DNA of 63,006 bases, counting the filler, from Welwitschia mirabilis (lineage: Eukaryota), in NCBI GenBank assembly GCA_051453625.1. It is 6 parts of one record of this genome, joined end to end, with 100 filler letters (N's around TTAATTAATTAA, not from the genome) between each part and the next. Parts side by side here need not be neighbours in the genome. Positions count along the whole stretch, not along the records: positions 27,971 to 47,124 come from JBOZIK010000001.1; 5 more parts are not named here. One strand, written 5' to 3'. How positions within the stretch are numbered: the stretch's first letter is position 1; each line of letters starts with the position of its first letter. This document shows positions 1,623 through 48,700 of the stretch, one piece after another. The position numbers and the translations under genes were made by a program. The notes under the pieces were generated by a model. That model had not been told where the DNA came from. It worked only from the letters and a program-made list of their open reading frames with translations, and searched no databases.

Positions 1623-1797
1623 TACAGATCACCGAATGAGGTAGTGGGGATAATAGCTTGACCACAGATTACCGAATGAAGAAGTGGGCTTTACAGATCG
1701 CCAAATGAGGCAGTGCAGTGAAATATAAAATAGTGTATAAGAACCATAGATTACTGAATAAGGCAGTGGGCTTCACAGATCACCGAATGAGGCAGTC
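1623..1797 (+). repeat. Five copies of the 24-bp LTR motif CACAGATCGCCGAATGAGGCAGTG
   Basis: Copies at about 1623, 1663, 1692, 1745 and 1774 with spacers of 16, 5, 29 and 5 bp; 2-3 copies per LTR in array 2. Confidence 0.9.
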
Positions 1798-5190: not shown

Positions 5191-6348
5191 TAAAGTGGAA
5201 TACAAACAAATGTGTCATCACACTTACACAAAATCAGAATAAGGGGTATAAAGTGCCTTGTTTAATTCCAGGCCACCTTTTAACATGCAATGTCAAATGG
5301 CTAATGGAAAAATGACGAGAGAAGAGACTATATGTGCTCAAATTATCTTCAGTAGCATCATTTTCTAAACCACTAGCAAACACTTCAATTTTTTTTTTTT
5401 TTAGTTTTCATCACTCTTTCACAGGCCTTTCTTCAGCAATGTCTTCTTAACCAACATCTTTGTCATTGTTCTCTACTCTGATGTTTTCCATTTCAGAGTC
5501 TCTGTCCTTTTCTTTGGCAGTTGCATTAGTTTTGTCCACAAAAATGTCTTCTTTTTGCGGCTTATATGGCTTTGCTTGCTCTTCCTTAAGTACTAAACCA
5601 TCAAGCTTTGAATTTTTTTAACTAAATTAGTTTCTTCTACCATGTTTTCCATTTCTTGAACTTATTCCTTCTCTTCTATGTTGGTAGCTTCAACCTTTTT
5701 GGCTTTTATTGACCTTTGCTGCCCTCATTAGTCTAGGGTGCGCCAAAGGGGTGTTGGAGGCGGTGTTCTTCATTTTAGCCCTATACCAGATTCTGCAAAG
5801 GAAACTTGTGTTGGAAGTGGTGTTCTTGTTCATTTCAGCCCTATACCACCTTCTACAAAAGCACCTTTTGGTCTAACATTTGGACTAAAGAAGACATACC
5901 ATTTATGAGGTTGTGGTGTGCCTGCAAAGGAAAACAGAAAATTCTACTCCAAATTGGAGTCCTTTGCAGGGTGAAATTACATAGGGTAAAGAATGGATAA
6001 CTGGCTAATTTTCCAAGTGCTGGATTTCAGAAGTAGTGCTTTCATGTTCGTCATTGCCAATTAAACTAACAAGTTGTTTCACCATGCCATTTCATTATCT
6101 ATTAGTTTCCAAAAATCCCAGGGGTTCTTTTGGTCACCACCATGATAATTCTCTTTAGCATCAGAGTGAAGTGGATGACCTCAGTATTCACTTTCATGCC
6201 TTCTGTTATATCCATGAGCATGCCTTTTTGAATGATCACTTGTACGTTTTTATTGTTTTCTCAAGCATTTCCTCATCCCTCTCTGTTTCATGAGCATGCT
6301 TCCTCTTATTTTTGTTCTGGTGATTTTCTGAAAGATATCATTAACAGT

Positions 6349-25449: not shown

Positions 25450-28400
25450 TCCTTTGCTCTTGGTAGCTGTATCAAAGAAGATTGACTAGGTGTGTTCTTA
25501 GGAGGTAAGAGAGGAGGGAGTCTCTTCTCGTATCTATTGACCTAAGAGCTCTCTAATGTCATAGAAGTCTATTTCAATACTCATGTCTGTGATGGGCTTC
25601 TTTCTGAGTAGTCTCAGAAGGGACATTCACCGCATAAAAGTCAGTAACACTTATCACCTTTGGGCCTGAGGCCAACTAAGCTTTCATGTTGTTAAGGATG
25701 TCCTAAACGTTCACATTGGTTTGGTTGCGTTGCATTGTGGACTTGCTATAGTCTTTTAGAGTCATGTTATGCTCACGAGCTACCTTGGAAGAAAGGATAT
25801 TGGTAGAAACATTAGAATTGATTAAGTAATTATGGACCTTCTTACCAAACATTCGTAGGGTAAGTAGAAAAGGTAAAGCCTTCTTCCTAGAGCTAAAGAT
25901 GGTGGCTTTGGCTTCTAGCTTGGCAATGTTCATCTTAGGAGGAGACGTACATTGGCGGTAGGTGTCCACAGAAGCACACACTTATGTAAGCTTCCTCCTT
26001 TGTTCCTTGCTCATTTGGGGGACCTCAAAGAGAGAAAGGTTGGCTTTGCATTTCTTGAGTCCTTCTACTACATTATAGGACTAAGTAGCTTACTACTTTT
26101 CTTTGTTTATCGTGGAAGACACCTTAGAAGTGTTGATGCTGGTATCTATCATCTTTTGGAAGACGAGAATCATTTGGCCTTTCTTCATTGGACGACATGC
26201 GATTCTTATAAGAAGGGATGAAGGTAGTCATGTTCTCCTTTGTCCTTTCCTTGCTAGGGTTAGTCTTGAGGCCTATGGACTCCCTATTCGCAGCCCTAGC
26301 TTTTCCTAGTTTAAACTAAGGTTTGGAGCACTAAGAGATGCTCAATAGCATTTGTAGGTCCATTCTCACCTTAGTGAGGGACCAGAGTAACATTATGTCT
26401 ATTTAACAAGTTGGTGATGTCAAAATAGTAAGTACCCTCCATATAGGACATGGAATTAGTTTGATGTTGAGAGGTTTTCATAATCTCGTGGATCTCTAGG
26501 TTGTTTTGACAATTATATCTAGCATGGCTGGCAATCTAGTGGAAGGGATAAAAGTGATGAGAGATTGTTGAGTTTGTGTTGTCCATGGGAACCTATCCCT
26601 ATGCTCTTTGGGATCCTGCCCAAGGTTAGGGAAGCTTTTCCTTGTGGTTCTTTCCTTCCAATCTAGGATTCTTCCTTGTTAGGAGTCTTGGGCTGCTTTC
26701 AGAGCCCAAGGAAGACATCATGGAGGTGGAGGGATAGCTTGGGGCTACAGGGAGAGGACTAAGAGATGGGTGAGACCTAAAGTGGTTGGAAAGAAGTCGA
26801 GGAGTTGGAAGAAGGGCAAGTAGCAAGAAAGTAGATATAGAGGATGGGGAAAGAGCAGGCAATTATGGTGGTTGGAAGGATTGGGCAGGGGCATGATTGA
26901 AGGAATTGGACATAGGGAGAGGAGTAATATTAGGAGAAGGAGGCATACTAGGTATAGATGAACTATGCTTGGAGAGCAATATGGAGTGCCTGATGCCAGT
27001 GTCTCTAGGCTCATTGTCTCATTCACTAAATTTTGGAGACTGTTGAGGTTAGGCTTTTGCTTGAGGAAGAAGCAAGTCATCCCATTGGGGGCAAACTTGT
27101 ACAACACCATCACTTGAAAAGCTAATGGCTTGGACTTGGTCATAAATGACCTAAAAGTGGTTGTTAAAGGTCTTGACCATCTTTGTATACTCATTTTTGA
27201 TGGTTGCGAAGTACTGCTAAAGGTTCTCTGAGTGCATTTGCCTACCAAATTACTGAAGAACAAGCTTGAACTAGACCATTCCATGAGCTGATGGAATTTA
27301 GAGGAACTCACGTGCATCACAGTTATGCTTCCCCACAAGATAGAGGAGAAATAATTGTCAAAAGACATCTTCTTTGTTGACTTTCAGAAAGGATAAGCCC
27401 TTAGTGAAGATTGTAATGTGGTCTTTTAGGCTAGAGTAAGAGTGAGGACTCAATGCTTATAGGAATTTGTTACACTTGGTAAGCAGGTTTTTGCAGTTTG
27501 GAAAGTTGATGAGATTGTTCTTGGTATATGGAATTGAATTTGGATTAGCCCTTGGATTAGGTTGGACAATAAAACTATGAGTAACTAAGGTGATGATAGA
27601 AGTTGTAGATGGGATCGAGTTAACTCTTCAACGGTGAAAGTTGTTAGGAGCTTAATAGGCACCCTAAAGGGGGGGTTGAATAGGGTAAACAAGATATTTT
27701 GATACTTTTAAAGAAATATAAATCTGATAGCACAAATATTGAACAATAAACGAATAAACAACTGAATGAAAAAACAAAAGAACCAAGTGCACTAGATTTT
27801 ATAGTGGTTCGGCCAAGCCTACTCCACTCTCAGGGGGCAGCAAACAGCTATCAGCCTCCCGGTTCCCTTANNNNNNNNNNNNNNNNNNNNNNNNNNNNNN
27901 NNNNNNNNNNNNNNTTAATTAATTAANNNNNNNNNNNNNNNNNNNNNNNNNNNNNNNNNNNNNNNNNNNNACAAGTTCAGGCCAGATTTCTGAATATTGA
28001 TAGAGATTCCTTCAAGTGATCTTTTCTCAATGTAAGCAAGCCACCTTTAATCCACTAGATGGAGGTATATATAGATACAAGCCAGAGAAGAGCCATTGGT
28101 GGTTGGAAACTGCAGTTTAATGTCTATAAAAGGCTATATTTTTGCGTCAACAAATATATATCCGAATGTCCCATCGTAAAAGTTCGGACGTCCCTGTTTT
28201 TTAATCTTCATTTCTGGACAACCGAACACAGGGTCGGACGTCCCTGTTTCCAAGGTCGGACGTCCCAGTATAAAAAGTCCGTATATAGGGTCGGACGTCC
28301 CAATTTGTCAGGATAGATGTCCCTATACAATAAATCTATGTACAGGGTCGGACGTCCGAGTTTATCAGTTCGGATGTCCCAGTATATAAAACCGAGTAGA

Positions 28401-28760
28401 GCTCCGGACATCCCGATTACTCAGGACGGACGTCCCAATACATAAAACCGCATGGATGGTCAGACGTCCCAATTAGACATGGCGGACGTCCCGGTCTGGA
28501 GAAATCTTGTTTTCTTAACTGAAAAACTTCATCATTGAAAATATTTGATGCAACAAAAGTCTTTTACAGGAGAAGGAGGGGACTTGGATGGAAAGGACTT
28601 TGCTAGACAAGTCTCATAGCAGCTAAGCTCTCTTGAGAAGGACTTTAGTGAAGGGACTTCTCAATTCCTTCTAATTCTTTTGTGATCAATACTTAAATCA
28701 CATCTGGCTATGGTACAATAGGATAAGGAAAATGCAATGGCCCTCCTTTTGGCACCAGAA
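25450..28760 (-). pseudogene. Decayed Tat-like gag-protease, interrupted by a solo LTR
   Basis: LPFLLTLRMFGKKVHNYLINSNVSTNILS (degenerate protease, cf. L(I/V)DSGAS); PBS-like TGGTGCCAAAAGGAGGG on the minus strand at about 28741-28757, then TGTTGATG at about 28765. Confidence 0.6.
27642..28555 (-). mobile_element. SIRE-like solo LTR with a perfect 5-bp TSD
   Basis: TGTTAGG...GCAACA flanked by AAAGT (27637-27641 and 28556-28560); GGACGTCC array at 28165-28495; termini resemble the reverse complement of 54548-55692. Confidence 0.88.
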
Positions 28761-30818
28761 GAGGTGTTGATGTAAATTCCTTTCCCTATGCATACAAGAG
28801 CAACAACACATAGTTTCTAGGGTGAAGGGATGCTAGAAATAAGGTACTGTAGGAGAATTCATCATGGTATAGAGTAGCCAAGGCATAGGGTAGAGCTATG
28901 TGGGCTTAAGTCTAGTGAAGACCTCATGGAATGATAAGATATAAAAACAAAACAATGAAAGACAAAGGAAAAAGGAGGGAGAAAGGATCTGTGTTCTCAT
29001 ACCAAAGCTGTAAGAGATTGATTTCTTTATGAAGGGAAAAAGGCATATCAAAAGCTGGTCTTTTTCAATTGTTATAGCAAGCTGCCTTGACTTCTTTGCA
29101 AGGAATAAGGGGTGCCTAACATAGATTCCTCCTCACCGTTAACTTTATTGTGCCTTCAGAGTAAGGTTCTAGAGTCTAAGGGAAGACAAAAGCTTTATTA
29201 ATAGTAAAATCCAAATGCAAAGTGTAGAGATTAATAATTTCATTCTCTGTAAAGGGACAGAGTATAAGTAGACTTTCTTCCAGCTCTCCTCCATCAACTC
29301 TAGAGGGAGGAATTGGAAGAGGAATAGGAGAAATTGTTGACGATGTTATAAACTCGGTTTAACATTCCTTAGGATGGAGCCTTAAAGGCTTCAGTGAAGT
29401 ATGTTGAATTGACTGGGAATCTCTAAGATCTACATAGGTGGTATGGTTGATTGGATGAAGGAGATCCGTACTACAAAATCCTTTGAGCAACAACATGACT
29501 GAAATGTTATAGAATCCTTTGCTACTTTGTGTTGTATTTTGGAATTTCTCATCATTTCTTGTACTTTTCCTTTTTACTACTTTGGTCATTCTAATTTGTG
29601 TACTCAATATTCGATGAGTAGAACTTTATAAGTTCATTTTTCTTTGAAATTTGGAAGCATTTTTATTTTTTTAAAATTTGGAATGCAAGATGTCAAAGGT
29701 AAAGCTATACCTGTTAAGTTAATAAAAGTTCTGAGGGTTTCCTTATTTTACTGCGGTGATATCATCCAGTTTTTATCTTGGCTAATTCAACTATTGTTTG
29801 AAATCATTGTCACCCTATGGTAGGTAAGTCTGGGGTTTTTCCTTGGCTAATCAAACTGTGCTTTATTTGAAACAGTTAAAGTTATGAAATTGGCTTTCTT
29901 ACTTCAAGCTTGCTCAAACTAGATCAATTTCTGCCTTCAAATAAAGAATTTAAACCTAACCTTAGTGTGGAGTTTGTTGAAGACTTTAAAATTTTCTTGG
30001 TTAATTGATATTTCTGAAATATTTGAATACTGAAACGTTCCAACTTGCAATTGATCCTATCTTAGAAATCAAGGGCTCTTGGCCCTCCACTGGGCAATCC
30101 TAATCTTCTGGTTTGATAAACACAGTAGGCTTTTGTGGACTGGTTCGGAATATCTCCCAAAAATGAAATTATCAGAATTTGGAATTTCAATGCTTAAATC
30201 AATCAGCAAAAGCAATCAGTCAATGAGAAGCTTAAAACATTGCTACATTGCTAAGCATACAACGGTGTATTTTAATAGGATGAAACTACATTCCTTCCAA
30301 GCATGCATCAGGATACACGGGTAATTTAAAAACTTAAGTATGTCAAGAAAGAAATCTATTTGAAAATAAAATAACAATAGCTTTGATCAAGAACAAATTG
30401 GTCAACCCTGTGGAGTTGGACAGCCCATGAACTATTTTAAATTGTCAACAAAATATTAAATCAAGTCCATGTTAAAAATGTCTCCACACATGTTATAGGA
30501 ATAACTTCTTTAAAAAATTAACAGAACATGTATCACTTATAATTCTTGATGAAATGAAATAATAAAAATTATTATCTAATTTTTAATTCTTTAGTTACAA
30601 TTTCGTAAGTTTCCAACTTGAGGTTTAATAAAACCCAATATAAATTTCTTATTTAGAAAATATAAATTATATAATTATATGTTTATATTTTAGGAGATAT
30701 AATACAAAATCTGTATTACAAAACTCATATTTCAAAAAAGTTAAAATAATATTCTTTATAAAACTTTACAAAGGGTGAGCTTTACATCTTTAATAATTTA
30801 GCAACCAAAAGTTCTTTT

Positions 30819-30871
30819 GGGGTTGGTGCGAGGGGCGGGAAGGGGGAACGGGGGAGGGGAGGTTTGGGGGG
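30819..30871 (+). other. G-rich tract, potential G-quadruplex
   Basis: Seven runs of at least 3 G in 53 bp within AT-rich non-repetitive DNA. Confidence 0.5.
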
Positions 30872-31327
30872 AAGAACTTCCTAGGAATAACAAACTTACT
30901 AATCCGGCTGATGCATAGTCAAAATTTGAAGAAACAAAAACCATACCAGAATTCTAAAAGCCATCCATAAAAGAGCATTAGGAATAATACATTATTCATT
31001 TCGTTTGTTTCGTAAAAATCACTTAGTGTGCCATATTGACAAGTTGTAAACAAGACTTGGACAAAAATCATGAATCATGACTGAAATCTTAACAAGGCCA
31101 CTATGTGCTGTATGCTAACAGAGGCCTCCAATGAAACAATGTCTTATTGTAATACTCCAAACTGTATGTGCATCAACACTGAAAGTGTCATGTGTAATTT
31201 AATTATATGATTTGTGATTCCCTTAATCTCAAGAATTTAAAATTAGTTTTGAGTATTGGTGTGCGTGTTTTATCCTATGGAAGACAAAAGGAAGCTTGAT
31301 ATATAGAAGATATGGTTATCTTTGCAG

Positions 31328-31411
31328 ATATGGTATGTCTGCAACAGCAAAAGATTTTGAAATTTATGCTTCAAATGCGACCTTTGAGGATCCTCTCATG
31401 TGTGCTCATGG
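31328..31411 (+). CDS. Internal exon of a plant NTF2-like (SnoaL-like fold) family gene
   Basis: TTTGCAG acceptor and GT donor; encodes YGMSATAKDFEIYASNATFEDPLMCAHG, which I recall as matching the conserved plant protein motif LYGxxATxxDFEIYAPxAxFEDPLMxAHG (At5g04830-like, from memory). Confidence 0.88.
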
Positions 31412-31539
31412 GTATAGAATTTGCCACTTTCTATAATTCATGTAGTGTCATGTACATAGTTCCCATATGCAAAGGATCCATCTGTGCTGAATTAACACTA
31501 AGTTCTGTACATTTTGTTTTGTCTCTGCTGGCTATGAAG

Positions 31540-31579
31540 AGTGCAACAAATCAAATCAGCTTTTTATTCTCTTCCAAAG
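31540..31579 (+). CDS. Next exon of the same NTF2-like gene
   Basis: After a 128-bp GT-AG intron the split codon GG|A is completed and the frame continues VQQIKSAFYSLPK, followed by GTGATG. Confidence 0.88.
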
Positions 31580-32127
31580 GTGATGAGATCATTTTTGAAT
31601 ATTTATCTTTAATGATTTGAAGAATTTGTGCAATGAAAATGCTTTATGTAGAGTAGTTTCTTATGCACGTAAAGAAAGAGATGGTTTGACCAGTTGCTAT
31701 GTACGCTTGTCATTATCTTCCAGTTCATAAGAGATAAATCACTGAAAAAGTACAAAACTTATGTGCTTAATGTTGGTTTCATTGTATTTTCCCTAAGACT
31801 TTTTACTTTTTGGCTGATGTTGTTACGTTCACTAAAATTATCACTTTTTCCTTCAAAGAAGTTAAAATTCTGGGTTTATGGTGGCTGCTGCACTATTAAG
31901 AATAGGAGTTTTATGTCTCTAAAATAGGATTTATATTAGATGCGAAGCATTCCTCTTTCCAATTTCTTCCCTTGGCTCCCAAACAACTACTTTCTACCTA
32001 AAGGGTTTTAGTGAGTTGAAGGCTCCATCTTGGGGAAAAAAAACTATAACCCTAAGGGCCAAAGGAAAAAGGGAGATGGGATCATCTTAATATTAGTATT
32101 TGAATATTCAAATTTTCTTGTGAGTAA

Positions 32128-32201
32128 TATAAAATCAGAGTTTACATGCAACAACAATACAAAGAATAGTGGAGGGTGAAAAAGCAAGAAAGACAACAAC
32201 A

Positions 32202-32232
<31 letters not shown>

Positions 32233-34322
32233 TCCACAAGACACATAGATGTACAAGGTAAAACCCTCAGAGGCTGCCACATTGGAAGAAAGAGCTCTCT
32301 TAGCTATTAGGTAAATGAACATGCCACATTTATGATGTGCAGGGGTCTAAGTTCTTTAAATAGGGTTAGGGTTCTAACCTTATCCAAGCTTGAAACCCTG
32401 GAATTCACCTTTTCTTTGTTTACATATCTAGCTGCCTCATTTATTATTTAGGCCTCAGTTTAAATTTTAACTTTAATTCTAACAGGTAAATGGACTACCA
32501 AGGGTTGATCTTCCTTAAGAACATTATAACATAACACAAAAATGCAAACCTAAGATTTGGCTTTAAATACTAACAATCTCCCACTTGAAGACAAATCTAC
32601 CTTATCCATCCATGTGAAGCAACTACAATACTGACTTGATCTCTAACATCTAAGGAATTTATTAGGTTACCTTCAATGTCACATATCATTTTGCTATCAT
32701 GGAATGGTACCTTCCACTAAAATAGTCGTCAATAAGACTAAAGCATTTGTGTTCAAACTAACCAAAACAACTTGGATTATGGTAGAAAAGGAGTTGGATT
32801 GCAATCAGAACAGACTAGAGGCTCTCTAGCAAATGGTTCTTTTCATTTCTAGAACAAGGGCCTTCTAAAACTATGCAGTATATAACAATGGAAACAAACT
32901 AGAGTGATATGATGACCACTATGCATGAGATGTTCAATATAACTAGTTTTTATAAACTTCTGCATCAGTGCATAAACTTCTACTTATTGAAGTGACTGCA
33001 ATAGATAAAAGAACAAAACATTGTACAACTCTTATTACCAATATGTCATGATGAAGGAAAAATACACCATAAATTGGCTAAAACCCACCAAAGAGGATCA
33101 TCCTCCACAACAACAATTTGGACCTCTCCTAAGGACTTGGCCTTCTTAGAGGATTCATCATCATGTCTAAGCAATAGACAATTTCTCTTTACATACATGT
33201 CCTTTCGTCTTGCATTTCCAGCAAATTGGTTTACTTCTTTTCCTCCTTTTGGTCTCCACTTGCATATAATGGCTCAGCCTTAGATGAAGATCCACTAGTC
33301 CTAGAATGATATTATTCCTCTATTCAAGGAATAGCAACAACTTTGTCATAGTCCATGGCTGTAAATGTATTGGCACTAATCTCTATCACTGCATGATCCC
33401 AATTTCATAATGCACCTAACAAGATGAACGAGTGTTTGATGCCCGACGAGCCTTACAGCCTTCTGCTTCTAGATTTGCTACTATGACATTAGGTCATGCC
33501 AACAAAGTCAATGGCATTTCCAATTCTTTCATACCCATTGAATGAATCTCATACAATAAATATGTGATTTTCATTTTCCACAAATGATAATGCTTTGCAT
33601 TGAAGTTTTTCACAATAGCCATATTTGTATCCACAACTCCCAAAAAATCAAGAAACTGCAAACAAAGAAAAACAATCCACCATAGCTTTAGGAAAACCCG
33701 CAATCCCTCCAATTTCACATTGCACATCCTCAAAGATCTCCTTCAATCTCCATATAGAAGAAATAGAGCTCAAATAGAAGGAAAAAACCCTTGATCCACT
33801 TGCTTTAGAACTTGGCATTATTTGTTCATGTGATCGCTAGAACTTAGGGGATAAAATCCTAATCCCCCAATAACAAGTGTTGCAAAAAAATAGAGTTTAT
33901 GTGCAACAACAATAAAATGAATAATGAAGCATGACAAACAAAAAATGTGAAACCCAAGAAAATCCATGACATGAGCTTACATGCTAAAACCCTAAAAAAG
34001 GTAGAGGGAAACATCCATATGAGAAGAAAGTGCTCTATTGGCTGGTATGCAAATGAACTTGTCGCATTTACAATGTGCAAGGATTCAAGTTCTTTAAAGA
34101 GGGTTAGCATTTTAACCCAAGCCGAGGTTGAAATTCTATATTAAAAAAAAACCTCTAGAATTCACTCTCTTTTAGTCTTATGCCTTATTCCCTCATTTAT
34201 TCATAGGTCTTGCTTTATATTATTACTTTAATTACAACATGTGTATGAACAACCAAAGGCTTATCTTCCTTAGCAACATTACAACATAAAACAAACACAA
34301 GTTTTGGTTTCAAACTCTAATA
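32128..34322 (-). mobile_element. Old gag-only (TR-GAG-like) Copia derivative, about 2.2 kb
   Basis: Diverged LTRs about 32128-32575 and 33878-34322; PPT AAGTGGGAGAT (32576-32586); gag start MAIVKNFNAKHYHLWKMKITYLLYE; possible TSD AGTAA (32123-32127, 34323-34327). Confidence 0.7.
32205..32232 (+). repeat. (AG)14 microsatellite inside an LTR
   Basis: Direct reading. Confidence 0.95.
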
Positions 34323-34409
34323 AGTAAAACACTTGTCAAAAGTTGACATTTGTATCAAGGAAATATTACAACATGCCTTCTTTTGAGAAAAATTTGTATA
34401 TGCCATCCT

Positions 34410-35309
34410 TAATAGAGGATCAACCCCAGATCTAGAGAGGTGGGGGGTGAATACAATTTATGAAAAAATTCAATCTAATAAAATTTAATCGATCTTCATT
34501 GGTTTTTATCACATCAAAAAAGAGTAAGAATCTAAACAAAAATGTAGAGGATAAAAACAAGTGCACAACAAATTTTGAAAGTGGCTTAGGTGCAATGTGC
34601 AACCTTTGTCCACTCTTTAAGCCTTAAACATCACACCTAAGGTTGTATCTCTATAATTTCTCAAAGCTATGATGCTAACCTATAACCGTACATCTTGGAT
34701 AGTGAGGTCCAATCCACAAACTAAAATTTGCAAGAGATGCTTTGAATGAGAGGTATGCCTTGTTGCTCCTATGCATTTCACTCAAGATTAGAAGAATTCC
34801 TTTTGTAATGTGTGTTAAGCTAGGCTTAGAGAATAGACAAAGATCAATAAAAAAATTCATGGAATAGTAGAAGGCATAATCAAATTCTTGAGAGAAAAAT
34901 GGAAGAATAGTATTTCCAATTGAGTGGCACTTGTCTTTTTATATGTTGAGAGCTGATCTCGGCATTTAGGGGATTGGAGCTTGCTAATCATCAAATTAAT
35001 TCTCATCTAGTTCATCAACAGCTAAAATGTTTAAATTCATGTTTAATCGCCCACATAGTCTCTCTACTCGTTTGAATGTTTTTCGGTTGAATAATCTGGT
35101 CATTTACTTAAAAAGCTAGGTCAAGTTGATAGCATTTGATTTTTATAGGTCTAGATCTATAGCTATTAGGTCACCCACAAAAATATCTAGTTAGTTGAAT
35201 ACTTGGATATTGAATTGAACACAAACCAAGGGGTTGTCCCAAGTGAGATATCGGTCAGTGGTTGCCCTGACGACGAAATTTTGGCAATCATAAATCTAAT
35301 CAAACAACA
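34410..35309 (-). mobile_element. Old SIRE-like solo LTR remnant
   Basis: CTAGAGAGGTGGGGGGTGAATA near the left end, like the termini at 27642 and 59108; ends ...AAACAACA; no TSD seen. Confidence 0.5.
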
Positions 35310-36950
35310 AAACTTCACTTGAATACTAGATTTGAAAATATCATATTACAAACACAAATTTTGCAATTTCAACTATTCATCAGACAATAATAACAACTTG
35401 TTTTTAATTAGTAATTCCACTCTTACTTATTGATGGCATTTCTTGTAGTTTCACATATTTGCTTAATTTTCCATTTAGTAGTCATTGAATGCATTAAAAA
35501 AGATGATAGAACAATGCTCTCTAACAAGAAATTGCATTAGAAATAGCAAATTGACTTTACTGTGGTTAAAGGAAAGAACAACATTAAAACAGTCGCTACT
35601 CCAAAAATCGAACGGGAGATGATGTTAATAAAACCATACATCTTGAAACCATGGTAGAGGGCTTCATTATACAAATGAAATTTTTGCCAAATCACATTGA
35701 GAATCAACACAAAGATATTCCTTGCAAAAGGACAAAGTTGGAAGCAGTGACTGGCATCCTAGAGATTTATTGTTGTTTCTTAGCAGGATCCCCTCCTGCC
35801 AATGGTATCTCAAGATCTTGTTTGGGATGTTGGTGCCTGCTAATTTTGTTTTTCCAAAATTGGCATACTAGCAATTTATTGCCATTTCTCGATGAGATCC
35901 CATTCCAAATCTAGAGGCCTTTTAACTTTTTTAAAGAAAATAATTTGAAGAAAACAAATAAAACCTAATTAAAGGGGATTTGATCCCTCCATTTTCTAGA
36001 ATTTTGTTTCACTTCTCTTGATGCCATAAACAACCCCTACAACAATGCAGTTGTGGTAACATTAGGGTTTTGGACGGTTAAAACATTTAAAATATATAAA
36101 TAAATTATAAATATGTAAAATGTATAGTTTCTTAATATCTCGAGATTTTGTGGGCATAGCCAGTATTACTCCCAGGACCTTGTAAGATCCCATCTAGAAA
36201 ATTTATGTCAGGAGGGGACGAGATGTGGAACGCAATCATACGTTGCAACAAAAATTGAATTGACAATTAAAATTTAAGATTTGCAAAATAAAAATAGACA
36301 TATTGAATGGAATGTTCCAGATGTTAGTGCAACTATTTCTAAAGTTCTAAAACAATGGGAAGAAACAGGAGAGAAATCCCAAACCTTGATCTACTAGGGG
36401 TTCCTAAAAGAGAGGACGAGAATTTAATTGAAGAAATTCCACAATCAGTAGAAGAAAAAAATTTACGTTAAAAAATAACCTATTGTCGATGCAAATTCAA
36501 TTTGTGTAGGTTTGGAAAGGGCAACAATGTCCAGTTCCCAAGGGTGAGGTCCTAGACTTATTTTAGAGGGCGGCTAGAAATTAGGTACCCAATACAATTG
36601 CCCTTAGGGTACATAGTAATTGGGGAATAGGGTTAGAGCATAGGCTAAGTGTAGTGAGTAACACCTCACAGGTACTAAGGTAGGTTTAAAGAAAAAACAA
36701 GGAACGGAAATGAGAAAATAAAATAGAGGGTATAGTGTAAGGAATAGAAGGGGAACCTCTTAGAGGAGAAGGTATCCTCAGATTGTTCCAAGGTGCTAGG
36801 TGAAGGGCATAGAATAACTCTTAGATATGGGAATAGAGGTTTCAGCCGGATCTCCTCCCAAGGTTGTAACTAGGTGATCGTAGTTCTTCAAAAAGGGAGA
36901 ACAGAAAGGCTACACTAGGAGGGTGTTCTTTCTGCACTAAAGATAAAGGG

Positions 36951-36983
36951 TCTCTCTCTCTCTTTCTCACACACACACACACA
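36951..36983 (+). repeat. Compound (TC)n(AC)n microsatellite
   Basis: Direct reading. Confidence 0.85.
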
Positions 36984-39900
36984 CTAGATAGAAGATGCTT
37001 GAGGAAAGGTCCTCCATGATTTCTGTTGTGCCTACAAATGGTAAGTAATAGAATAATTAGAAAGGAACAAAACTCATTTTATTAGTATCTCTCTTAAAAC
37101 ATCACTCTTCTTTGAAATGGAGAGGAGAGGACTATAAATAGGTCTCTCTAGGTGAGAAGAAGGAAGGACTATTACATTACAAAAACAAATAATTGAAAAC
37201 AATTCTTTACAAAACTTGACAACAAAGCATTAGAATTGCCAAAAGATGTGCAGTTGATAGAAGCTTCTTCTGTTGTCTTCATGAGTCTTCCTTGCAAAGA
37301 AGGTGAAATCATTTGCTAGATGGGAGTTTGGAAGAGAGTGAAGGCAAGATCACTATCCGGTATATGAGGAAGTGAGCTCCAGTCTTACAAATAACTTTTA
37401 CAGTGCTGGAGGGTAACAACGGAATAGAGAGAAAACATAGAGAGGGTCTCCCAGATGCAAAGACCTAAAAATGAGAGAGAAAGGGAAAGATGCCTCTTAG
37501 ATGAAAGGTAGAGAAGTTGGGAGTGTCATGGAAGAAAGGGAAGGGAAGTTATAATGTTGGGATCTAGATAGCATCTTTTTGCAGTTAGTTGTCCTCATTG
37601 TCCTTAAGCTAGTCATGATTCCATCATTGAGGTAGTGCTTGGAAGATCAATGTGGTAGTTGTAAAAAGGTTGACAAATGGCTAAGTAGTCATTGGTGGTA
37701 CTAAAGAGGATCACTCCATGAGAACAGTGCTCACTTAACTAGGTATCATGCTAGTACTCACCTTGTGGTGTAATGTCATAGGTAGGCTCACTTGATTTTG
37801 GTGTGCCTTCATGATTTGATTCAACTTTAAGACTTTTAAAGTTGAAGGAAAGGTGTGGACTGAATGATCATGCCCTTAATGAAGGAAGTTGGGGAAAGAT
37901 GTGAAAAAGAATGGCCTTGTCTGAAGAACTACATCTCTGAGAGTGAAACAACTTGGGGAGGATACTGACTCAAGAGATGCTGTTGTTCATGCTAGTAGAT
38001 GAACCAAATATAAAACTAGGTAAAGAACCTAATATCATTGTTGCACAGGGATAATTGGTGTTGACTAATCAAAAATTACACAAACTATTATAAAACTTTC
38101 AAGTTACAAATCAAAGAAAAGAAAAGGGAAAAAGAACAGAGGTTGAGAAATTGATTTTGAAACTTCATTTGGAAAAGTGGAAAGTAAGCGAGCTTTAAGT
38201 GTTTACCCGATTCGTCCTTTTGCTGTTCCTCACTCAACCATATGCTGCACTATCGTGAAACAAACTTCAGACCATCAAGTCTAAAGGCTTGGGTCGTGGT
38301 GACATAATCTCATTCACCATTTGAGTGTTGGTGAATTCGAAAGTTACTAATTCTTTACAGCAAATGGAAAGTATGAACTTTAAAGTGCACAAGATCCATG
38401 AAATTAGTAAGACTTAGATCAATTAACTTAATGAATTCACTCAGTTGGCCAAAGTAAAATTTAATAGTATGTGTTGCTTAAGCATTCCTAGTACAAAATG
38501 ACTTGAGAGTAACAATCACAAGAAAAGACTCTTTAGAATTAAATCAGAAATAGGCATATTACATCAAAGATAAACAAAGTAGAAAGGACTCCTTGAATTA
38601 TCCTTGAAAGTAAGCTCACTCCCTAAAGAGGCGCTCAGAAGGCCATCGCGACTGACGCTCCAAAGACTCTATACTTCGCCCAAACGAAGGATGTTTACAA
38701 TAAAGGGCTCAAGGCCCTTTTATAGGCAAGGATGGGCATGGAGGATGGTTACAAGCTTAGGTGAGTGGTCACATAATGATGACATGAGGTAGGGCAGTTT
38801 GTCATCTTTCAGTAGGTGAAGATCCTTATGACGAGGCCAACCACTTGGCTTCTAGATGCTGTTGTTGCTGCCAACCCCAGTCATCGCCACGTGTCTCCAC
38901 TGTCATCCTACTCAACAATGCCGCATGTTGTTGTTGTTGTGTGTCGTCGTCATCACGGCCATGTGTCATCAAAAATGCTACTTGCATTTAATGTAATTTT
39001 GCATGATAGTTCAAGAACATAAGAATGGACGTGTTTTGCTCAGAAACACTGGAGGCACCGGTAGTCCTAGACAATGGCGCTGACATTTTAGCTTGAATAA
39101 TCGTCATCTTTTGTAAAGTCCCTCAAAATGTGATAATTAACCTGAAAATGTCATGGGAAAATGATAAGTCCAAAATTAATATAGAAATCAATAGAAGACA
39201 TTTTTTTATGATAAAATCGATTATATTAATGTCCTCCATTAAAATAAATTGGTCATTTAACTTGATTGTAATGTCAATATTTATATGTTAACACACCCCC
39301 TAACCAGACTTTCGCTAGTGCCTTAACAAAAAGTTGATAATGATATGGTTAAACATGAAAAAATTGTCTAAATCGAAGTACTCAAGCATGAAAATGATAA
39401 AACTTTGAAAACTTTTATGACCAATTTTCTGCAATTAAGCTATCAAAATGAAAAATTTGGTGAAAAGCGAAGTGAAAACTAGATGCCATACCCCCTAACC
39501 AAAATTGAACTTTGTCCTCAAAGTTACATGGTGAAAAGTGTTAAAATTAGTTTGAGAACACAACCTTAGAAAGATTTTGAAGAGTCCTTTTTATTGAAAA
39601 CCATGCAAAATGATGCAACTAAGCTACAAAAGGGGAAAAAACTAACTATTGCAGAACAACCATTTTATTCTTCCTAAAAATTCTAAGTAAAAAGTCGAAC
39701 CCTAAGAAGTTTATTTTATGATGAGTTGGAATGGATGATGGAGACGGACAGTCAAAATGTGACAATGGACTTAACCATAAACCGATGAATAAATGAGCGA
39801 ACCTACCTAAGTTAATGGCCTTTATTATATTTTTGTGATTTTTAATGGATCTCGATATCAACTAAGTGTAGTATTAACCAACTAACTTGTAGGAATTGAA

Positions 39901-42380
39901 GAAATCATAGCAAATCCTAAGTATGAAAGTTANNNNNNNNNNNNNNNNNNNNNNNNNNNNNNNNNNNNNNNNNNNNNNNNNNNNNNNNNNNNNNNNNNNN
40001 NNNNNNNNNNNNNNNNNNNNNNNNNNNNNNNNNNNNNNNNNNNNNNNNNNNNNNNNNNNNNNNNNNNNNNNNNNNNNNGTTTCATGAAGAAACCACTACT
40101 GAATTGCCAGTAAGCATTTATATCCCCGATGCAATTCATTATGTTGTAATTAGATCATTAGAGTTGCATTGCTAGCGAGTGTCTATAGCATCGATGCAGT
40201 TAACTAAACCCAAATAAGTGATTAATGATATGTGCATTTGGAGAAGAGATATTAATTTTTCTTTTGTCCATCTTCTCATATTTAATTTTTTTTAGAGGGG
40301 TTCATTGGCTCATTAGCCTAATCATGACAATCGTGTCCCTATTAAAAGCTTTAGACATAACGATCATACAAGAGGGTAGATTCCACCTTTCTAACCAAGT
40401 TTTACTGAATTTGGAAACCTTAAATGAATGTGCTCTTAACCATCACACTGGATATAAACATAACTCTTCCTTAGAAACCCATAAGTGAACTTAATTGCAA
40501 CAATTACTTAAGTGAGAACGAGATCACTTATTATTGATTTTTGTTAAAGGCCATTTAACCTGAGTCCATAAGTCTCAAGAATTCATAGATCGATGGTTGG
40601 GGTGGATGGTTTGTTGGCTTAATGGGGTCGTTAGGAAATGGTAAGGGTGAATGGAGGGACTTAAGGGAAAGGACTTTGGGATTTCCTAAGTGAAAGTGTT
40701 TAAACCGATGATTGTACTGATGGTAGTGCTTGTGAGGTTTTAGGCGAGAGAAAGCATCATCCACACACAGTTTTAAGGTTTCTAATTTTTTCTAAAAGAA
40801 ATCTAGCCTAAAAGAAAATTTTGCTCTAAAACAAAAATCTAATCTAGAGGCTAAAAATTCTCTAAGGTGATATGTGCGTGAAGGCTTAAGAGTGTGGAAA
40901 CGAATGTTGGATAATTCAAGACTTTGTGAAGTATTTTGAACCATGAGGGAATCCATGTAAATTCTTATGCAATCGTTTATGAAATTCCAAAGAACATTAG
41001 TGTAGGCAGAAAAGTTTATGCATTTAAGATCAGTAGTAGTCCATCCCCTAGCTTGTTTATGTTTAATCAACAACTCTTGCAAGATATCATTTTGGGAAGA
41101 AGACAAAAACGAATTGGAAATTACCTGATAAGGTAAGTGTTCATCGGAAGAATTAAGGTCTTTGAAAGCTACTTCCAATTCTACAGAAGTTCTCTCTTCT
41201 TTGTTAAGGCTTAGGTCTCGCTTAGTAAGTGAAGGTGGAGATATAATGGTTGGCTTGTGGAGTTGTTGAGAAAAAGGTGAGGATTTCTCAAATGATGGAT
41301 CACATATGGGATTTTTACTAATATTCTTTTCCTAGTTAAGGTCACTAGTGGATTCCTCCTCGTGTGATAGCTTACGTGACAATCTTTGTAATTCAATTCT
41401 CTCTTTATTGATGTCGCTTAATGGCTTATCCGTTTTTGTGCAACTCTCTAAGGTATAGCCTTCCTCACATGGTTGTTCATCTTCTGATTCATCCTCTGAC
41501 GTGTTTAACCCTTTACTAAAGTATAGATTTCTCACGTATAATTGATCACTTAGTAGTACATTTCTAAACTCAAGATTTTTATGAATTTCCTCATTGGTTT
41601 CTTCCTCATTTCTAAAGGATATGGTTTGGTTATCAATAATTTCACTATTTTTATTTCTTTCAAGGTTTTCAATACTCTCAGGCTCATGGAATGTAGGAAG
41701 GTTATCCTTTTGTTGGTTGAGAATTCCAATAATTTGAGCACTAGTCTGCGTTATTTGTTGGAGGATTTGCTCAAGGTTACTTAGGGAAGAGGAGTGTTGT
41801 TTCAAAGCTCTCTCATGGTCTTGGTTAATTTGATTTTGAGCATGCATGAAAGTTTTTACTAACTCCTCAAATGGGGTGGAGGAAGGTTATTGTTGCATGA
41901 AGGAACATAGATGGTAAGGAACAAATGATGGGAGGATATGGTAAAATGAAAGGTATGGGATCAAACTCTTATTGAAAATAAGGTATTTCAAATTCAGGAT
42001 AACGAGTTTGTTTGGTATGTGGAGGGTGTTGGTCAAGTGAGTATGGAAAGGAGGGTGAAGGGTAGGGGTTGTTGTGTTGGATGTAGTCTCCTAAAGTTTT
42101 CCTGGGCCGAATGTAATCTCCTACAATTTTAAGTTGATCATGATTAGGTATATTGTAGGGATTTTTGTAGTTTTCATAAGCAGAATGGGATTCAAAAGCT
42201 GTTTTGTTCTATCTCCCAAAAGGATCATGTTCCCAACCCATGTCGATTTTTTAGAAAACAATATATGGGGTTCACTAAAAGATCATGTTTTCATGAAGTT
42301 TTACAAATATAGAGGAGGCCTGATATCTGAAAGATTTCAGAGAGTTGAGGAAGGGATTTCTATCAAGTCTGAGAGTTTTC

Positions 42381-45300
42381 TGACGCGGAATGATGCGACC
42401 CCCCGATACTTCTATTTTTTTTATTTTGCTATATATTGTTATTTCCTTGCTTTTAGTCCCACATTGTTTAGGGATTTCTGTTGAAAGGACTTATGCCCTA
42501 TAAATAAGTGGCTTATGTACTGTTTTAAGGGGGGCAGAAATAAAGAATTGGTTTGTTGTATTTGGAGGCCAATTGCTCTTTAAGTGTCTATTGAACCACA
42601 AATCGCCCAATGGGGCAGTGGGGATAATAGATAAACCATAGATCGCTGAATGAGGCAGTGGGCTTCACAGATCACTGAATGAGGCAGTGAAGTAAAAAAA
42701 GTATTTAATGCTTTCATGCTTCTGAGGTGGTATCAGAGCCTAATGGCGACCGACAGTAACGACGGTGGTCTTTGTGATGTGCTTGGGCGACTGGAGCCCT
42801 GATCCTTGGGGAAGAAGTGTTGCAATGATTGGAGCAACGTTTGCTGGGACACCTGGATCAAGAAACCAATCACAGATTCTGTCGCTTCAAAGAGCGGTTC
42901 GATGAGATTGCAGATTGGTTGGATGCTCTCGGTGTTGCTGTGAACCAGAACTGGATTAATGGCAAAAGGTCAGGAGTTGATGCTGCTTGTGGTGACCCTG
43001 TCTACAGGCTTGTTCCTGTCCGCAGGCAAAATTTCATGCATCTGATGAGTTGATGTACCCTAACCTTGAGCCCAACTTGAGGACGCGTTTTTCTCAAGTG
43101 GAGGGGATTGACGCGGAATGATGCAATCCCCACATAGTTTTATTTTTATATTTTGTTATATNNNNNNNNNNNNNNNNNNNNNNNNNNNNNNNNNNNNNNN
43201 NNNNNNNNNNNNNNNNNNNNNNNNNNNNNNNNNNNNNNNNNNNNNNNNNNNNNNNNNNNNNGGAGGGGATTGACGCGGAATGATGCAATCCCCCCATAGT
43301 TTTATTTTTATATTTTGTTATATATTGTTATTTACTTGCTTTTAGTCCCACATTGTTTATGGATTTCTGTTGAAAGGACTTATGTCCTATAAATAAGTGG
43401 CTTATGTACTATTTCAAGGGGGACCAATAAAGAATTGGTTTGTTGTATTTGGAGGCTAATTGCCCTCTAAGTGTCTATTGAACCACAGATTGCCAAAGGA
43501 GGCAGTGGGGATAATAAATAAACCACAGATCACCGAATGAGGCAGTGAAGTTAAAAAAAAAATTGAATGCTTTGACGCTGGGTCAGGATGGCGGTGGTCT
43601 CCTTGACGATGCTTAGGAGGCTGGAGCCCCAATCCTTGGGTACGAAGCATTGCAACAATTGGAGCAACGTTTATTGGGATGCCTGGATCAAGAAACCGAT
43701 TGCAGATTCTGTCGCTTTGAGGAGCGGTTCGATGAGATTACAGATTGGTTAGATGCTCTCGGTGTCGATGTGAACCAGAGCCGGATTAATGGCAGAAGGC
43801 CAGGAGTTGATGCTGCTCGTGGTGACTCTGACTACAGGCTTGTTCCTATTCGCAGGCAGAATTTCATGCATTTGATGAGCCGATGTACCTTGACCTTAAG
43901 CCCAACTCGAGGACGAGTTTTTCTCAAGTGGAGGGGACCGACGCAGAATGATGTAACCATCCTCCTCCCCCCCCAAATAGTTTTATTTTTATATTTACTA
44001 TACATTGTTATTTCCTTACTTTTAGTCCCACATTGTTTAGGGATTTCTATTGAAAGGACTTATATCCTATAAATAAGAGGCTTATATACTATTTTGGGGG
44101 AATGAAATAAAGAATTGGTTTGTTGTATTTGGAGGCTAATCACCTCGAAATGTCTATTGAACCATAGATCACCAAATTAGGCAGTGGGGATAATAGATTG
44201 ACCACAAATAGCCGAACGAGGCAGTGGGCTTCACAGATCGCCAAATAAGGCAGTGAAATTAAAAAAAAAATGAACGCTTTCACACTGCGTCAGGTGGTAT
44301 CAGTGCCTAATGACGACCAACGGTNNNNNNNNNNNNNNNNNNNNNNNNNNNNNNNNNNNNNNNNNNNNNNNNNNNNNNNNNNNNNNNNNNNNNNNNNNNN
44401 NNNNNNNNNNNNNNNNNNNNNNNNNNNNNNNNNNNNNNNNNNNNNNNNNNNNNNNNNNNNNNNNNNNNNNNNNNNNNNNNNNNNNNNNNNNNNNNNNNNN
44501 NNNNNNNNNNNNNNNNNNNNNNNNNNNNNNNNNNNNNNNNNNNNNNNNNNNNNNNNNNNNNNNNNNNNNNNNNNNNNNNNNNNNNNNNNNNNNNNNNNNN
44601 NNNNNNNNNNNNNNNNNNNNNNNNNNNNNNNNNNNNNNNNNNNNNNNNNNNNNNNNNNNNNNNNNNNNNNNNNNNNNNNNNNNNNNNNNNNNNNNNNNNN
44701 NNNNNNNNNNNNNNNNNNNNNNNNNNNNNNNNNNNNNNNNNNNNNNNNNNNNNNNNNNNNNNNNNNNNNNNNNNNNNNNNNNNNNNNNNNNNNNNNNNNN
44801 NNNNNNNNNNNNNNNNNNNNNNNNNNNNNNNNNNNNNNNNNNNNNNNNNNNNNNNNNNNNNNNNNNNNNNNNNNNNNNNNNNNNNNNNNNNNNNNNNNNN
44901 NNNNNNNNNNNNNNNNNNNNNNNNNNNNNNNNNNNNNNNNNNNNNNNNNNNNNNNNNNNNNNNNNNNNNNNNNNNNNNNNNNNNNNNNNNNNNNNNNNNN
45001 NNNNNNNNNNNNNNNNNNNNNNNNNNNNNNNNNNNNNNNNNNNNNNNNNNNNNNNNNNNNNNNNNNNNNNNNNNNNNNNNNNNNNNNNNNNNNNNNNNNN
45101 NNNNNNNNNNNNNNNNNNNNNNNNNNNNNNNNNNNNNNNNNNNNNNNNNNNNNNNNNNNNNNNNNNNNNNNNNNNNNNNNNNNNNNNNNNNNNNNNNNNN
45201 NNNNNNNNNNNNNNNNNNNNNNNNNNTGATGCGAACCGGAACCGGATTAACCGCAGAAGGCGAAGATTTGATGCTGCTCGTGGTGACCTTGTTTATAGGC

Positions 45301-45750
45301 CTGTTCTTATCCGCAGGCAGAATTTCATGCATTTGATGAGTCGATGTACCGTGACCCTTAGCTCAACTCGAGGATGCGTTTTGCTCAAGTGGAGGGGACT
45401 GACGCAGAATGATGTGACACCCCCCCTAATAGTTTTATTTTTACATTTTGCTATATATTGTTATTTCCTTACTTTTAGTCTCACATTGTTTAGGGATTTC
45501 TGTTGAAAGGACTTATGTCCTATAAATAAGAGGCTTATGTACTATTTCGGGGGAATGAAATAAAGAATTGGTTTGTTGTATTTGGAGGCTAATTGCCCTC
45601 GAAGTGTCTATTGAATCACAGATTGCCGAATGAGGCAGTGGGGATAATAGATTGACCACAGATCGCCAAACGAGGCAGTTGGCTTCACAGATCGACGAAT
45701 GAGGTAGTGAAGTTAAAAAAGAAAAATTTGAACGCTTTCACGCTGTATCA
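42381..45750 (+). mobile_element. Tandem-array TRIM (array 2): LTR-I-LTR-I-LTR-I...LTR with a single TSD
   Basis: LTRs 42381-42725, 43109-gap, 43271-43585, 43939-44292 and 45400-45750; consensus termini TGACGCRG...CTGCGTCA; PPT AAGTGGAGGGGA before each downstream LTR; TTTTC at 42376-42380 and 45751-45755. Confidence 0.93.
45521..45528 (+). promoter_or_regulatory. TATA box of the TRIM LTR
   Basis: CCTATAAATAAG is present in every sequenced LTR copy, about 90 bp upstream of the 24-bp motif cluster. Confidence 0.65.
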
Positions 45751-48700
45751 TTTTCCAAGCGAAAATGTCAGTGGTGCTAGTCAGGGAAAGGGACGACACC
45801 GGTCAGAATGAGATTTACAGCTTCAGAAAAGTTTTGGGGGTTCATGCAATTATCACAGAGTGTTTGACATTACAAGGCAATGAAAAAACCAAAAGAGAAA
45901 TGAAAATGGCAAAACATATGAATCCACTCTTAACAAAAATTAATTAAATATTTTTAGATTTTCAGTGTTTATATCAACAAGCTTGCACAAAAAATTAAAA
46001 CCAAAATTAAAAATGCTAAATGAAAATCATGCAAAGCAAGTTAAATTTTAGTGTTTTTTTGGTTCCTTGGCTGCAACTTACATAAACACTATTAGATCTA
46101 TAACCAGATCAAGTTAGAGCAAAGAAAACTAAAGAAAACTCAAACAAGACTAGTTCGGGTATCAGTGGAAATGACCTGTACCAACCATTGAAAAGAAAGA
46201 TAAACAAACAACAAAAAAAAAAAAAAAGAGAAAATGGACTAGTGTGGATATCCTTGGAAAGGAAATAGTACAAAAACTAACTAAAACCTTATAAGAAAGA
46301 AAGGTTTGTGCTCTTTCTGAGTGGCTACCGTACCATTATCCCTAGCAATGATGCTAACATCTTGTTTGTTCTAGTACATGAACTGGATTTAAAACTAGGT
46401 AAAGAACCTAGTATCGTTCTTTCATAGGGGTAATTACGGTTGATTAAACAAAAATTACACAAACTCTTACTAAGCTTGCAAGTTACAAATTAAAGAAAAG
46501 AAAAGGGAAAAAGAGGAGAGGTTGAGAAATTGGTTTTGAAACTTCGTCTGGAAAAGTGGGAAGTAAGCAAGCTCCAAGCGTTTACCTGATTTGTCCTTCT
46601 GCGATTCCTCACTCGACCATGTGCTACACTCTTGAAACAAACTTCAGACCATCAAGTGTAAAGGTTCGGGTCATGGTGGCATGATCTCATTCACCATTTG
46701 AGTGTTGGTGAATTTGAAAGTTACTAATCCTTCACAACCTAGTAATAAAAATGGAAAGTATGAACTTTAAAGTGCACAAGATCTATGAGATTACTAAGAT
46801 CAATTAACTTAACGAATTCACTCAGTTGACCAAAGTAAAACTTGATAGTGCGTGTTAGTTAAGCATTCTTAGTTTAAAATGAATTGAAACTAACAATCAA
46901 AAGAAAGCACTCTTTAGAATTGAATCAGAAATAGACACATCACATCAAAGATGAAGGAAGTAGAAAGGACTCATCAGATTATCCTCGAAAGCAAGCTTAC
47001 TCCCCAAAGAGGTGCTCAAAAGGCCATCACAACTGATGCTCCAAAGACTTTATACTTTGCCCAGACAAAGGAGGTTTATAGTAAAGGACTCAAGGCCCTT
47101 TTATAGGCAAGGATGGGGTTGGGGNNNNNNNNNNNNNNNNNNNNNNNNNNNNNNNNNNNNNNNNNNNNTTAATTAATTAANNNNNNNNNNNNNNNNNNNN
47201 NNNNNNNNNNNNNNNNNNNNNNNNAGGTGAAGATCCTTATGACGCGGCCAAGCACTTGGCTCCTAGATGCTGCTGCTGCAGCCAACCACTATCATCGCCA
47301 TGTGTCTCCATCATCATCCTGTTCAGCAATGCCACATGTCACTACTACATGTCATCGTCATCACTGCCATGTCATCAAGAATGCCAGTTACTTTTGATGT
47401 GGAACTTGATCAAGCCCATAACTGCATTTAATCTAATTTTCCATGACAGCCTAGGAACGTGAGAACGAAGATGTTTTGCTCAGAAAGATCGATGACGCCC
47501 CTCGGTAGTCTTGGACGACAGTGCTAGTGTTTTAGCTTGACTAATCATTATCTTTTACAAAGTCCCTTAAAATGTGATAATTAACTTAAAAATGTCAGGA
47601 GAAAACAATAAGTTCAAAATTAATATAGAAATCAATAGAAGACATGTTTTTATGAAAAAATCAATTATATTAATGTCTTTTGTTAAGATAAATTGTTCAT
47701 TTAACTTGATCATAATGTCAATTTTCACATGTTAATAGCTATGCACGAGATTGGAGGACACTGAATTTTACAAGGATGAGGCTAGGATGGAAGGTTGAAA
47801 GAAGGTGGAAGGAAGGGGTCTTGGAATTCCATGCCCGATGTGGGGAATTGACCTAGATTCCATCCCTTGGGTGTGGAATTTGAGTAATGAGGGTGTGGAG
47901 GGAGGAAGGAGGAGAAAGACAAAAAGGAGAAAAAGAGGGTGGGAAGGGAAGGGGAATAAGGAAAAGGGATAAGAGAAAGGTGAGAGGGGTAGGCAAATGG
48001 GGTCTTTAGAAATGAACTAGATGGGTAGCTTCTAAGGTTGTGGGCTAGCTTGGTGTTTGATGATGAAGATCCAAGCCAAAGATTCCACGCTGTCAAAGTT
48101 GGCATTTAACTGAGTTAAGATAGGAGAGAGACTTGGGAAAGAGGAATTCCACACCCAAGGCATGCAATTAATCTAGATGGTGAATTAAGGGAAAGGAGGA
48201 GGAAAGGGGGATGGGTGGAGAAAAAATGGAGAAAAAGGCAAGGGAAGGGAAGAATGAAGAGGAATGGGGAAGAATAAGGTTGATGAGGGAGCCTAGGAGG
48301 AGAAGGCAGATTGAAGATGTCTTCATGTGGAATGAGAAAGCTAGGGACGCTAACTGAAGGTAGAGCATAGAACTGGAAGAGATCAAGTTGTTGCCAGACT
48401 CCAAATCTGGTTGCTGAAGCTGAGCTGGAGCCCCAGGCTGGACAGAAGTGTGAGATCTAGGCTGGATTCCATGCGTTGGGCATGGAATCTAGGGGATGAG
48501 ATAGGGTTAAGGGGAAGGGGAAGGAAGAAAAGAGAAGGAAAGAAAGAGGAAGAAAGAAGGAAAGAAATGAAGAGGGGAGAGGAAGGGAGAAGAGGGAGCC
48601 AACTAGAAGAGAACGCTGAACAGAGTTGAAAACAGGTCCTCCCAATATTTTGGGGTTGGGTTGGTGTCTAAACACTTACTAACCATCAGGCATCCACAAG

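Follow-up and report, generated by a model that had tools for sequence, protein, structure and literature searches.

The Welwitschia mirabilis genome (assembly GCA_051453625.1) carries a tandem-array TRIM (TA-TRIM) at positions 42381–45750 of the window, meaning here the whole 63,006-nucleotide stretch that was analysed. The array occupies one insertion site. It is likely not clonal: variants in its LTRs suggest descent from at least two family members. The reading that we prefer, at a probability of roughly 0.55, is that a cDNA multimer, put together from at least two different members of the family, integrated as a whole.

Array Anatomy

The whole array lies within one part of the window (27971–47124). 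Four sequenced LTRs of 315–354 bp alternate with internal regions of 353–383 bp, and adjacent units share an LTR. A first-pass annotation of this DNA had described the same alternation with LTRs of about 350 bp and internal regions of about 350–380 bp. The features are as follows.

42080..42375, left flank, an older high-copy repeat that hosts the array (1191 candidates) and resumes at 45756
42376..42380, + strand, left copy of the target site duplication (TSD), TTTTC, from the repeat structure and empty-site paralogues
42381..42725, + strand, LTR a, 345 bp, U5 haplotype T-A-A-T; its left junction is also in an exact contig of public run X3
42726..43108, + strand, internal region 1, 383 bp: GG, tRNA-Met-type primer binding site (PBS), decayed gag start, integrase tail, polypurine tract (PPT)
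42728–42740, + strand, PBS of internal region 1, TGGTATCAGAGCC
43096–43107, + strand, PPT of internal region 1
43109..43161, + strand, LTR beginning, 53 bp, probably the start of LTR b; recurs beyond the 100-N gap with one mismatch
43162..43261, 100-N placeholder gap, its two ends overlapping
43271..43585, + strand, LTR b, 315 bp, lacking one U5 sub-repeat, U5 haplotype as in LTR a
43586..43938, + strand, internal region 2, 353 bp, without PBS; its junction with LTR b is bridged by an exact contig of public run X1
43939..44292, + strand, LTR c, 354 bp, U5 haplotype G-T-G-C
44293..44324, + strand, start of internal region 3, PBS present
44325..45226, 902-N gap, its size suggesting one more LTR-plus-internal unit
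45227..45399, + strand, 3' part of the last internal region, with PPT
45400..45750, + strand, LTR e, 351 bp, U5 haplotype as in LTR c
45751..45755, + strand, right copy of the TSD, TTTTC, from the empty-site paralogues

The repeat unit is about 730 bp, and a monomer including both LTRs is about 1.07 kb. The LTR termini are TGACG...TCA, except that LTR a ends in TGA and LTR c starts with CGA. The internal regions open with GG and a PBS, found in internal regions 1 and 3, and close with a PPT plus two bases, found in all three sequenced internal ends. We take the PBS to be of the tRNA-Met type. This agrees with the CRM PBS given in PMC3059260. The exception is internal region 2, in which LTR b and the GG after it are fused directly to sequence from 31 bp further along, with loss of 31 bp including the PBS. 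The gag start of internal region 1 extends over about 100 decayed codons.

The surroundings have a structure of their own. A 764-bp direct repeat (84%) flanks the array at window positions 37983–38736 and 46362–47117 and may represent the LTRs of an older host element, to which decayed minus-strand frames at 40795–41886 are assigned.

A Single Insertion Site

TTTTC occurs only before LTR a and after LTR e, and no TSD was found at the inner LTR ends of the array. Paralogues of the host repeat that lack the insertion have the left flank running on into the right one, and the two overlap by exactly 5 bases in 11 of 19 (an offset of −4 to −7 in 14 of the 19); therefore, the outer TTTTC is a true TSD. 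The first-pass annotation's claim of a single outer TSD thus stands, and the TSDs between units that it had named as a sign of independent nested insertions were not found.

The assembly is fragmented (6.27 Gb in 921,328 contigs) and places two N gaps within the array. For the 902-N gap, subtracting the 178 missing internal bases leaves 724, or one unit, by the scaffold's estimate of gap size. A fifth LTR would lie there on the strength of that estimate. The L5I4 form is compatible with the gap size, the gap length being an estimate and no contig spanning the gap. This is also how the proposal in the first-pass annotation of four internal regions and at least five LTRs fared: the arithmetic agrees with it, with only four full LTRs sequenced and the fifth estimated. 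At the 100-N gap, about 62 bases are present on both sides with one mismatch. This gap is probably an overlap placeholder, and it could conceal further units.

One might ask whether the array is a scaffolding artefact, or else a set of independent nested or adjacent insertions. The number of contigs, the two N gaps and the want of any public contig across the array would allow it; the Logan contigs of public runs are too short, and none spans the whole array. We consider it very improbable. The true TSD links the outer ends, and the stretch from LTR b through internal region 2 into LTR c, where the LTR type switches, is contiguous, gap-free sequence. The units differ by 11–17%, and because the LTR pairs are only 83–89% identical, the array is not an assembly stutter, as the first-pass annotation had already argued from their divergence. 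A 27-mer private to the four LTRs ties them to this locus, and exact contigs cover two junctions: one of 150 bp from run X3, which bears another species label, across the left array junction, and one of 111 bp from run X1, possibly the assembly's own sample, across the junction of LTR b and internal region 2. Among the public runs, no RNA run is listed as containing the array sequence.

Parentage

The TRIM arose by internal deletion from a CRM-like Ty3/gypsy element that this genome also contains, since both of its internal parts match longer elements, one of these retains the domains of such a parent, and the parental integrase frame enters the LTR. Internal positions 1–309 correspond to the PBS and the beginning of gag in longer elements (L140–L144 and L146) at 75–84%, and positions 305–381 match their integrase tail and PPT at 84–88%. 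L140 encodes, in order, RVT_1, RT_RNaseH_2, rve and SH3_Tf2-1. The integrase frame of the parent crosses the PPT and continues about 17 codons into the 3' LTR. The designation CRM-like is based on domain order, termini, PBS and integrase frame: the parent has RT-RH-IN order, a GPY/F motif, TGAYG...YRTCA termini and a tRNA-Met PBS. These features, together with an integrase frame running into the 3' LTR, which is described for CRM group A, are shared with CRM clade chromoviruses in the available part of Neumann et al. 2011 (PMC3059260). Compared with that clade, the TRIM copies are dispersed. The 297-aa integrase piece of L140 gave no match to a chromodomain. Both the tandem-array TRIM character and the CRM-type origin, which the first-pass annotation had mentioned as known from other plants, are borne out.

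L140 (244–5230) is itself a degenerate CRM-like element. Its 5' LTR is of the TRIM type, and at its 3' end an LTR of the parent type begins; it is likely a recombinant between the TRIM and its parent.

The coding capacity of the TRIM is confined to a remnant of the gag N-terminus, and a Pfam search returned no match at threshold. The remnant decays neutrally, with 14 of 61 aligned copies free of stops over 70 codons (one copy duplicates the window's own unit). A conserved small protein in the internal region was considered and rejected, as there is no codon-position bias (0.175/0.133/0.130) and stops are frequent. A Cassandra-like or other RNA-gene-derived LTR was likewise rejected; an Rfam scan to E = 1 gave two chance-level matches and none to 5S.

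The Family across the Genome

A one-unit search of the 6.27-Gb genome, which along with within-array LTR divergence had been proposed as a check in the first-pass annotation, yielded 5632 family candidates. Two or more internal regions are present at 8 other loci among 40 regions scored. In LTR–internal–LTR chains, a TSD with at most one mismatch flanks 12 of 21, and the LTR pairs are 84–92% identical (K2P 0.08–0.19 in 12 monomers). This divergence makes the family old, and the K2P of 0.12–0.21 among the array LTRs indicates a similar age for the array. At the fetched loci, a PBS follows 75 of 139 LTR ends, preceded in all 75 by GG, GA, AG or AA, and the two bases between PPT and LTR are AC or TC in 52 of 62 copies.

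With LTRs, PBS, PPT, monomers bearing 5-bp TSDs and no coding capacity, the family belongs to the TRIMs, with a monomer slightly over the <1 kb convention quoted in the available part of PMC13570524. The array in turn has at least three LTRs alternating with internal regions, shared LTRs and one outer TSD, as a TA-TRIM should. The suggestion in the first-pass annotation that the family could be an incipient satellite did not hold up: the units, at 83–89% identity, are not homogenised, the family is dispersed on many chromosomes, and no long homogenised satellite-type arrays were found in the fetched loci, where the longest has about five LTRs (a short-read assembly could hide longer ones).

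The first part of the window contains another copy or array of the family (5–1828 and 3573–3744), consisting of an internal region, LTR pieces and two N gaps. Additional U5 sub-repeats and a TTGACC variant characterise its LTRs. A direct duplication of 1.6 kb, 92% identical (window 1663–3274 and 3573–5191), starts inside the LTR end of that copy and takes in the LTR flank. The TRIM LTR appears modular. Its start is without about 55 bases that the parent LTR has between two short direct repeats (compared with the 3' LTR starts of L142 and L143), and another LTR family (L072–L097) also contains its 29/40-bp U5 sub-repeats, in higher copy number.

Two LTR Haplotypes in One Array

When the columns of the four sequenced LTRs are sorted by how they split, 15 separate a and b from c and e, and the other two splits have 2 each; about six of the 15 adjoin indels and are alignment-dependent. 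Four sites in U5 (LTR positions 202, 254, 255 and 272) were compared over 109 LTRs. The G-T-G-C haplotype is in 4 of the 109, namely c, e and both LTRs of an unlinked, TSD-flanked monomer (L022). T-A-A-T is in 7, namely a, b and LTRs of L007, L016 and L027. In a maximum likelihood tree, c and e group with L022, and a and b fall apart from them. Since the haplotypes exist at unlinked loci, the variants are either older than the insertion or were brought in by conversion. The TTGACC variant occurs at 32 places genome-wide, many of them in a related LTR family.

The switch of haplotype, from b to c, comes after the PBS-less junction of LTR b with internal region 2. That junction has 1 match in the genome, which is the window itself, and the idea that the array was copied as a multimer to other loci was rejected accordingly. 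A variant of c and e at LTR position 132 was also followed up as a marker of a sister copy; its sole outside match (L067) is no sister copy, as it belongs to a longer relative whose LTR differs.

The two blocks are not cleanly separated, because some sites in LTR b and in the internal regions contradict the division. LTR b shares a T at the U5 end with c and e, and a rare internal variant is common to internal region 1 and the last internal region and absent from internal region 2. At the 21–22 informative transversion columns, a and b differ at 3, as many as a and c or a and e, and c and e differ at 0. TSD-flanked monomers differ at 0–2 of these columns, and unlinked pairs at a median of 5.

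These irregularities bear on an alternative in which a monomer or uniform multimer inserted, unequal crossover between LTRs of sister chromatids or homologues grew the array, and ectopic conversion brought the second haplotype. The 27-mer common to all four LTRs has its 4 exact genome matches, all 4 of them, in the array (a looser pattern has one outside match), a sign either that the LTRs had a close common source or that conversion took place within the array. The K2P between a and e, 0.16, is inside the range of monomer LTR pairs, and the mosaic sites, which lie at the end of LTR b and within the internal regions, speak for this alternative as well. Monophyly of the four LTRs was not rejected (p = 0.175, log-likelihood lower by 22.6) in an AU test, a weak one that used 72 of the 109 LTRs, left out one long-branch row and did not reject two no-TSD control pairs either. 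Growth by unequal crossover is also the usual reading in the available text of PMC13570524 and one of two in that of PMC11899658. Against this, the conversion tract would have to cover four sites matching an unlinked element and then be duplicated early, since c and e are as distant as monomer pairs; nor does it account for the lack of a PBS at the junction where the type switches, or for the family's cDNA-end joints described below. We regard it as somewhat unlikely.

Two other monomers (L023 and L046) have no TSD and carry LTRs of different lineages, with 6/20 and 6/22 informative differences, a pattern expected from recombination between separate insertions.

LTR–LTR Joints and Other Arrays

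Elsewhere in the family, LTRs are joined head to tail with 4–7 spacer bases (L099 at 3384–3414, L108 at about 3845, L177, L179, L180, L181 and L182). There are 8 such joints, equal to 7 events at 6 loci, as L180 and L182 share a flank and are counted once. Five were found with a pattern that leaves the spacer free. A first pattern was too loose, with 494 matches mostly to another repeat; a tighter one gave 6 matches, 5 of them real, versus 2 in a reversed control. Eleven rows were flagged as LTR–LTR, and L009, L041 and L048 were dropped for having no LTR start after the joint.

The eight spacers are AAAC, GGTAAAC, GGTC, AATC, TGATTC, CATAC, GGATC and GGTAC. The last two bases are AC or TC in all eight, like those between PPT and LTR, and the first two are GG or AA in six, like those before the PBS, as would arise from end-joining of unprocessed linear cDNA ends. 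Retroviral two-LTR junctions arise by end-joining of just such ends. In plant extrachromosomal circular DNA, LTR–LTR junctions are attributed to NHEJ in the available part of PMC9324142. Two joints lie inside one TSD (L108, AGATA; L177, AATGA, with an internal gap). At three loci (L017, L059 and L106) the GG that follows an LTR end runs directly into other element sequence. The family also has deletions with starting points other than just after GG. Most subscription journals lay outside the literature covered, within which we found no paper on genomic TRIM LTR–LTR joints of this kind in plants.

A second five-LTR array (L100, 3269–6426) is flanked by TTATA/TTATG. Its outer LTRs share a 41-column deletion that is absent from the three inner LTRs. 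Matching outer LTRs that differ from the inner ones are the template-switch signature in the available part of Sabot and Schulman 2007 (PMC1950507). By contrast with such cases, a three-LTR array at L004 is homogeneous, with LTRs 92–93% identical and 0 informative differences. Because cDNA-end joints, L100 and the homogeneous L004 coexist, more than one route to arrays operates in this family.

Free cDNA is also central to a further explanation, namely that a monomer inserted first and that free cDNA or one-LTR circles of other members later recombined into it without integrase, the old TSD being kept. An integrase-independent route of cDNA recombination is known in yeasts (Ty5). It would give mixed units with one TSD, and it fits L100, with its foreign inner and matching outer LTRs, as well as the end of LTR b, which is partly chimeric. 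From a single crossover, however, one would expect reciprocal chimeras, with LTR e ending as a-type, and LTR e is c-type from position 7 to 334. We consider this explanation rather improbable.

Proposed Mechanism

We infer the timing of the joining: joining before integration is favoured because of the ab|ce split, the presence of the haplotypes at unlinked loci, the cDNA-end joints and L100. In this model, the enzymes of the CRM-like parent would have packaged several short RNAs. The right end of a finished cDNA (the CA of the LTR plus the GG that precedes the primer) would then have switched to, or been joined with, a second cDNA, and further units would have been added through normal PBS-guided transfers. 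Integrase would have inserted the entire multimer, with one TSD resulting, after which the units would have decayed neutrally, possibly with later conversion or unequal crossover.

Several observations run against a preformed multimer. Classical template switching predicts matching outer LTRs, and a and e do not match. The outcome of the AU test, the private 27-mer, the monomer-like distance of a to e, the equal differences of a to b, c and e, and the mosaic sites count here as well, as do the deletions starting elsewhere than after GG and the homogeneity of L004. The first-pass annotation had proposed one insertion event and left open the choice between a multimeric cDNA and later unequal recombination. 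The single site stands, and the haplotypes shared with unlinked loci together with the cDNA-end junctions in the family now tilt the choice, short of proof, to joining before integration.

Relation to Known Arrays

An array of this type is ordinary for a TRIM, as TSD-bounded L5I4 arrays are already published for maize and pear. The comparisons that follow are to the available portions of the papers cited. Gao et al. 2016 (PMC4717578) report TA-TRIMs in 129 subfamilies in 35 genomes, including the maize Zma-SMART L5I4 with TSD ATAAT. It is likewise a short nonautonomous LTR element with shared LTRs, up to five of them, and one outer TSD; here, in contrast, the unit is about 730 bp, has gag-start and integrase-tail remnants of a CRM-like parent and involves two LTR lineages. 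Sugar beet has 97 TA-TRIM copies with 3–21 LTRs (PMC13570524). Cassandra copies with three to five LTRs and a TSD are described from pear (PMC4079214) and from grasses and ferns (PMC7215508), and both template switching and recombination are proposed for them. Unlike Cassandra, our family has no 5S rRNA domain, and its array LTRs are 83–89% identical, whereas Cassandra units are almost identical.

Joining before integration has been proposed in PMC1950507, in Zeng and Sun 2018 (10.1101/452573) and in PMC7215508. The complex LTR elements of the first two are similarly TSD-flanked multi-LTR inserts with two parents, and those of 10.1101/452573 include inserts in which the outer LTRs are not the closest pair, as in the array here. 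Theirs are long and have three LTRs, whereas ours is miniature, has five, counting the one estimated from the gap, and comes from a family with unprocessed cDNA-end joints. PMC11899658 treats it as an open question whether tandem LTR structures are inserted ready-made or arise afterwards by recombination.

Significance

The family is a test case for that question, in that it combines lineage-marked LTRs, thousands of copies, many arrays and joints keeping extra cDNA-end bases. A long-read assembly could yield the share of each array-forming route. Mixed-origin arrays also violate the assumption that outer LTRs are identical at insertion, and so they bias LTR dating. We put forward only tentatively that integration of cDNA concatemers is routine in this TRIM family, the concatemers being built from different source copies by way of template switching and end-joining of unprocessed ends. 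If that is true, the family's old copies, which number in the thousands, would preserve a fossil record across the genome, and sequence alone would suffice to count how many tandem LTR arrays arose before integration and how many after it.
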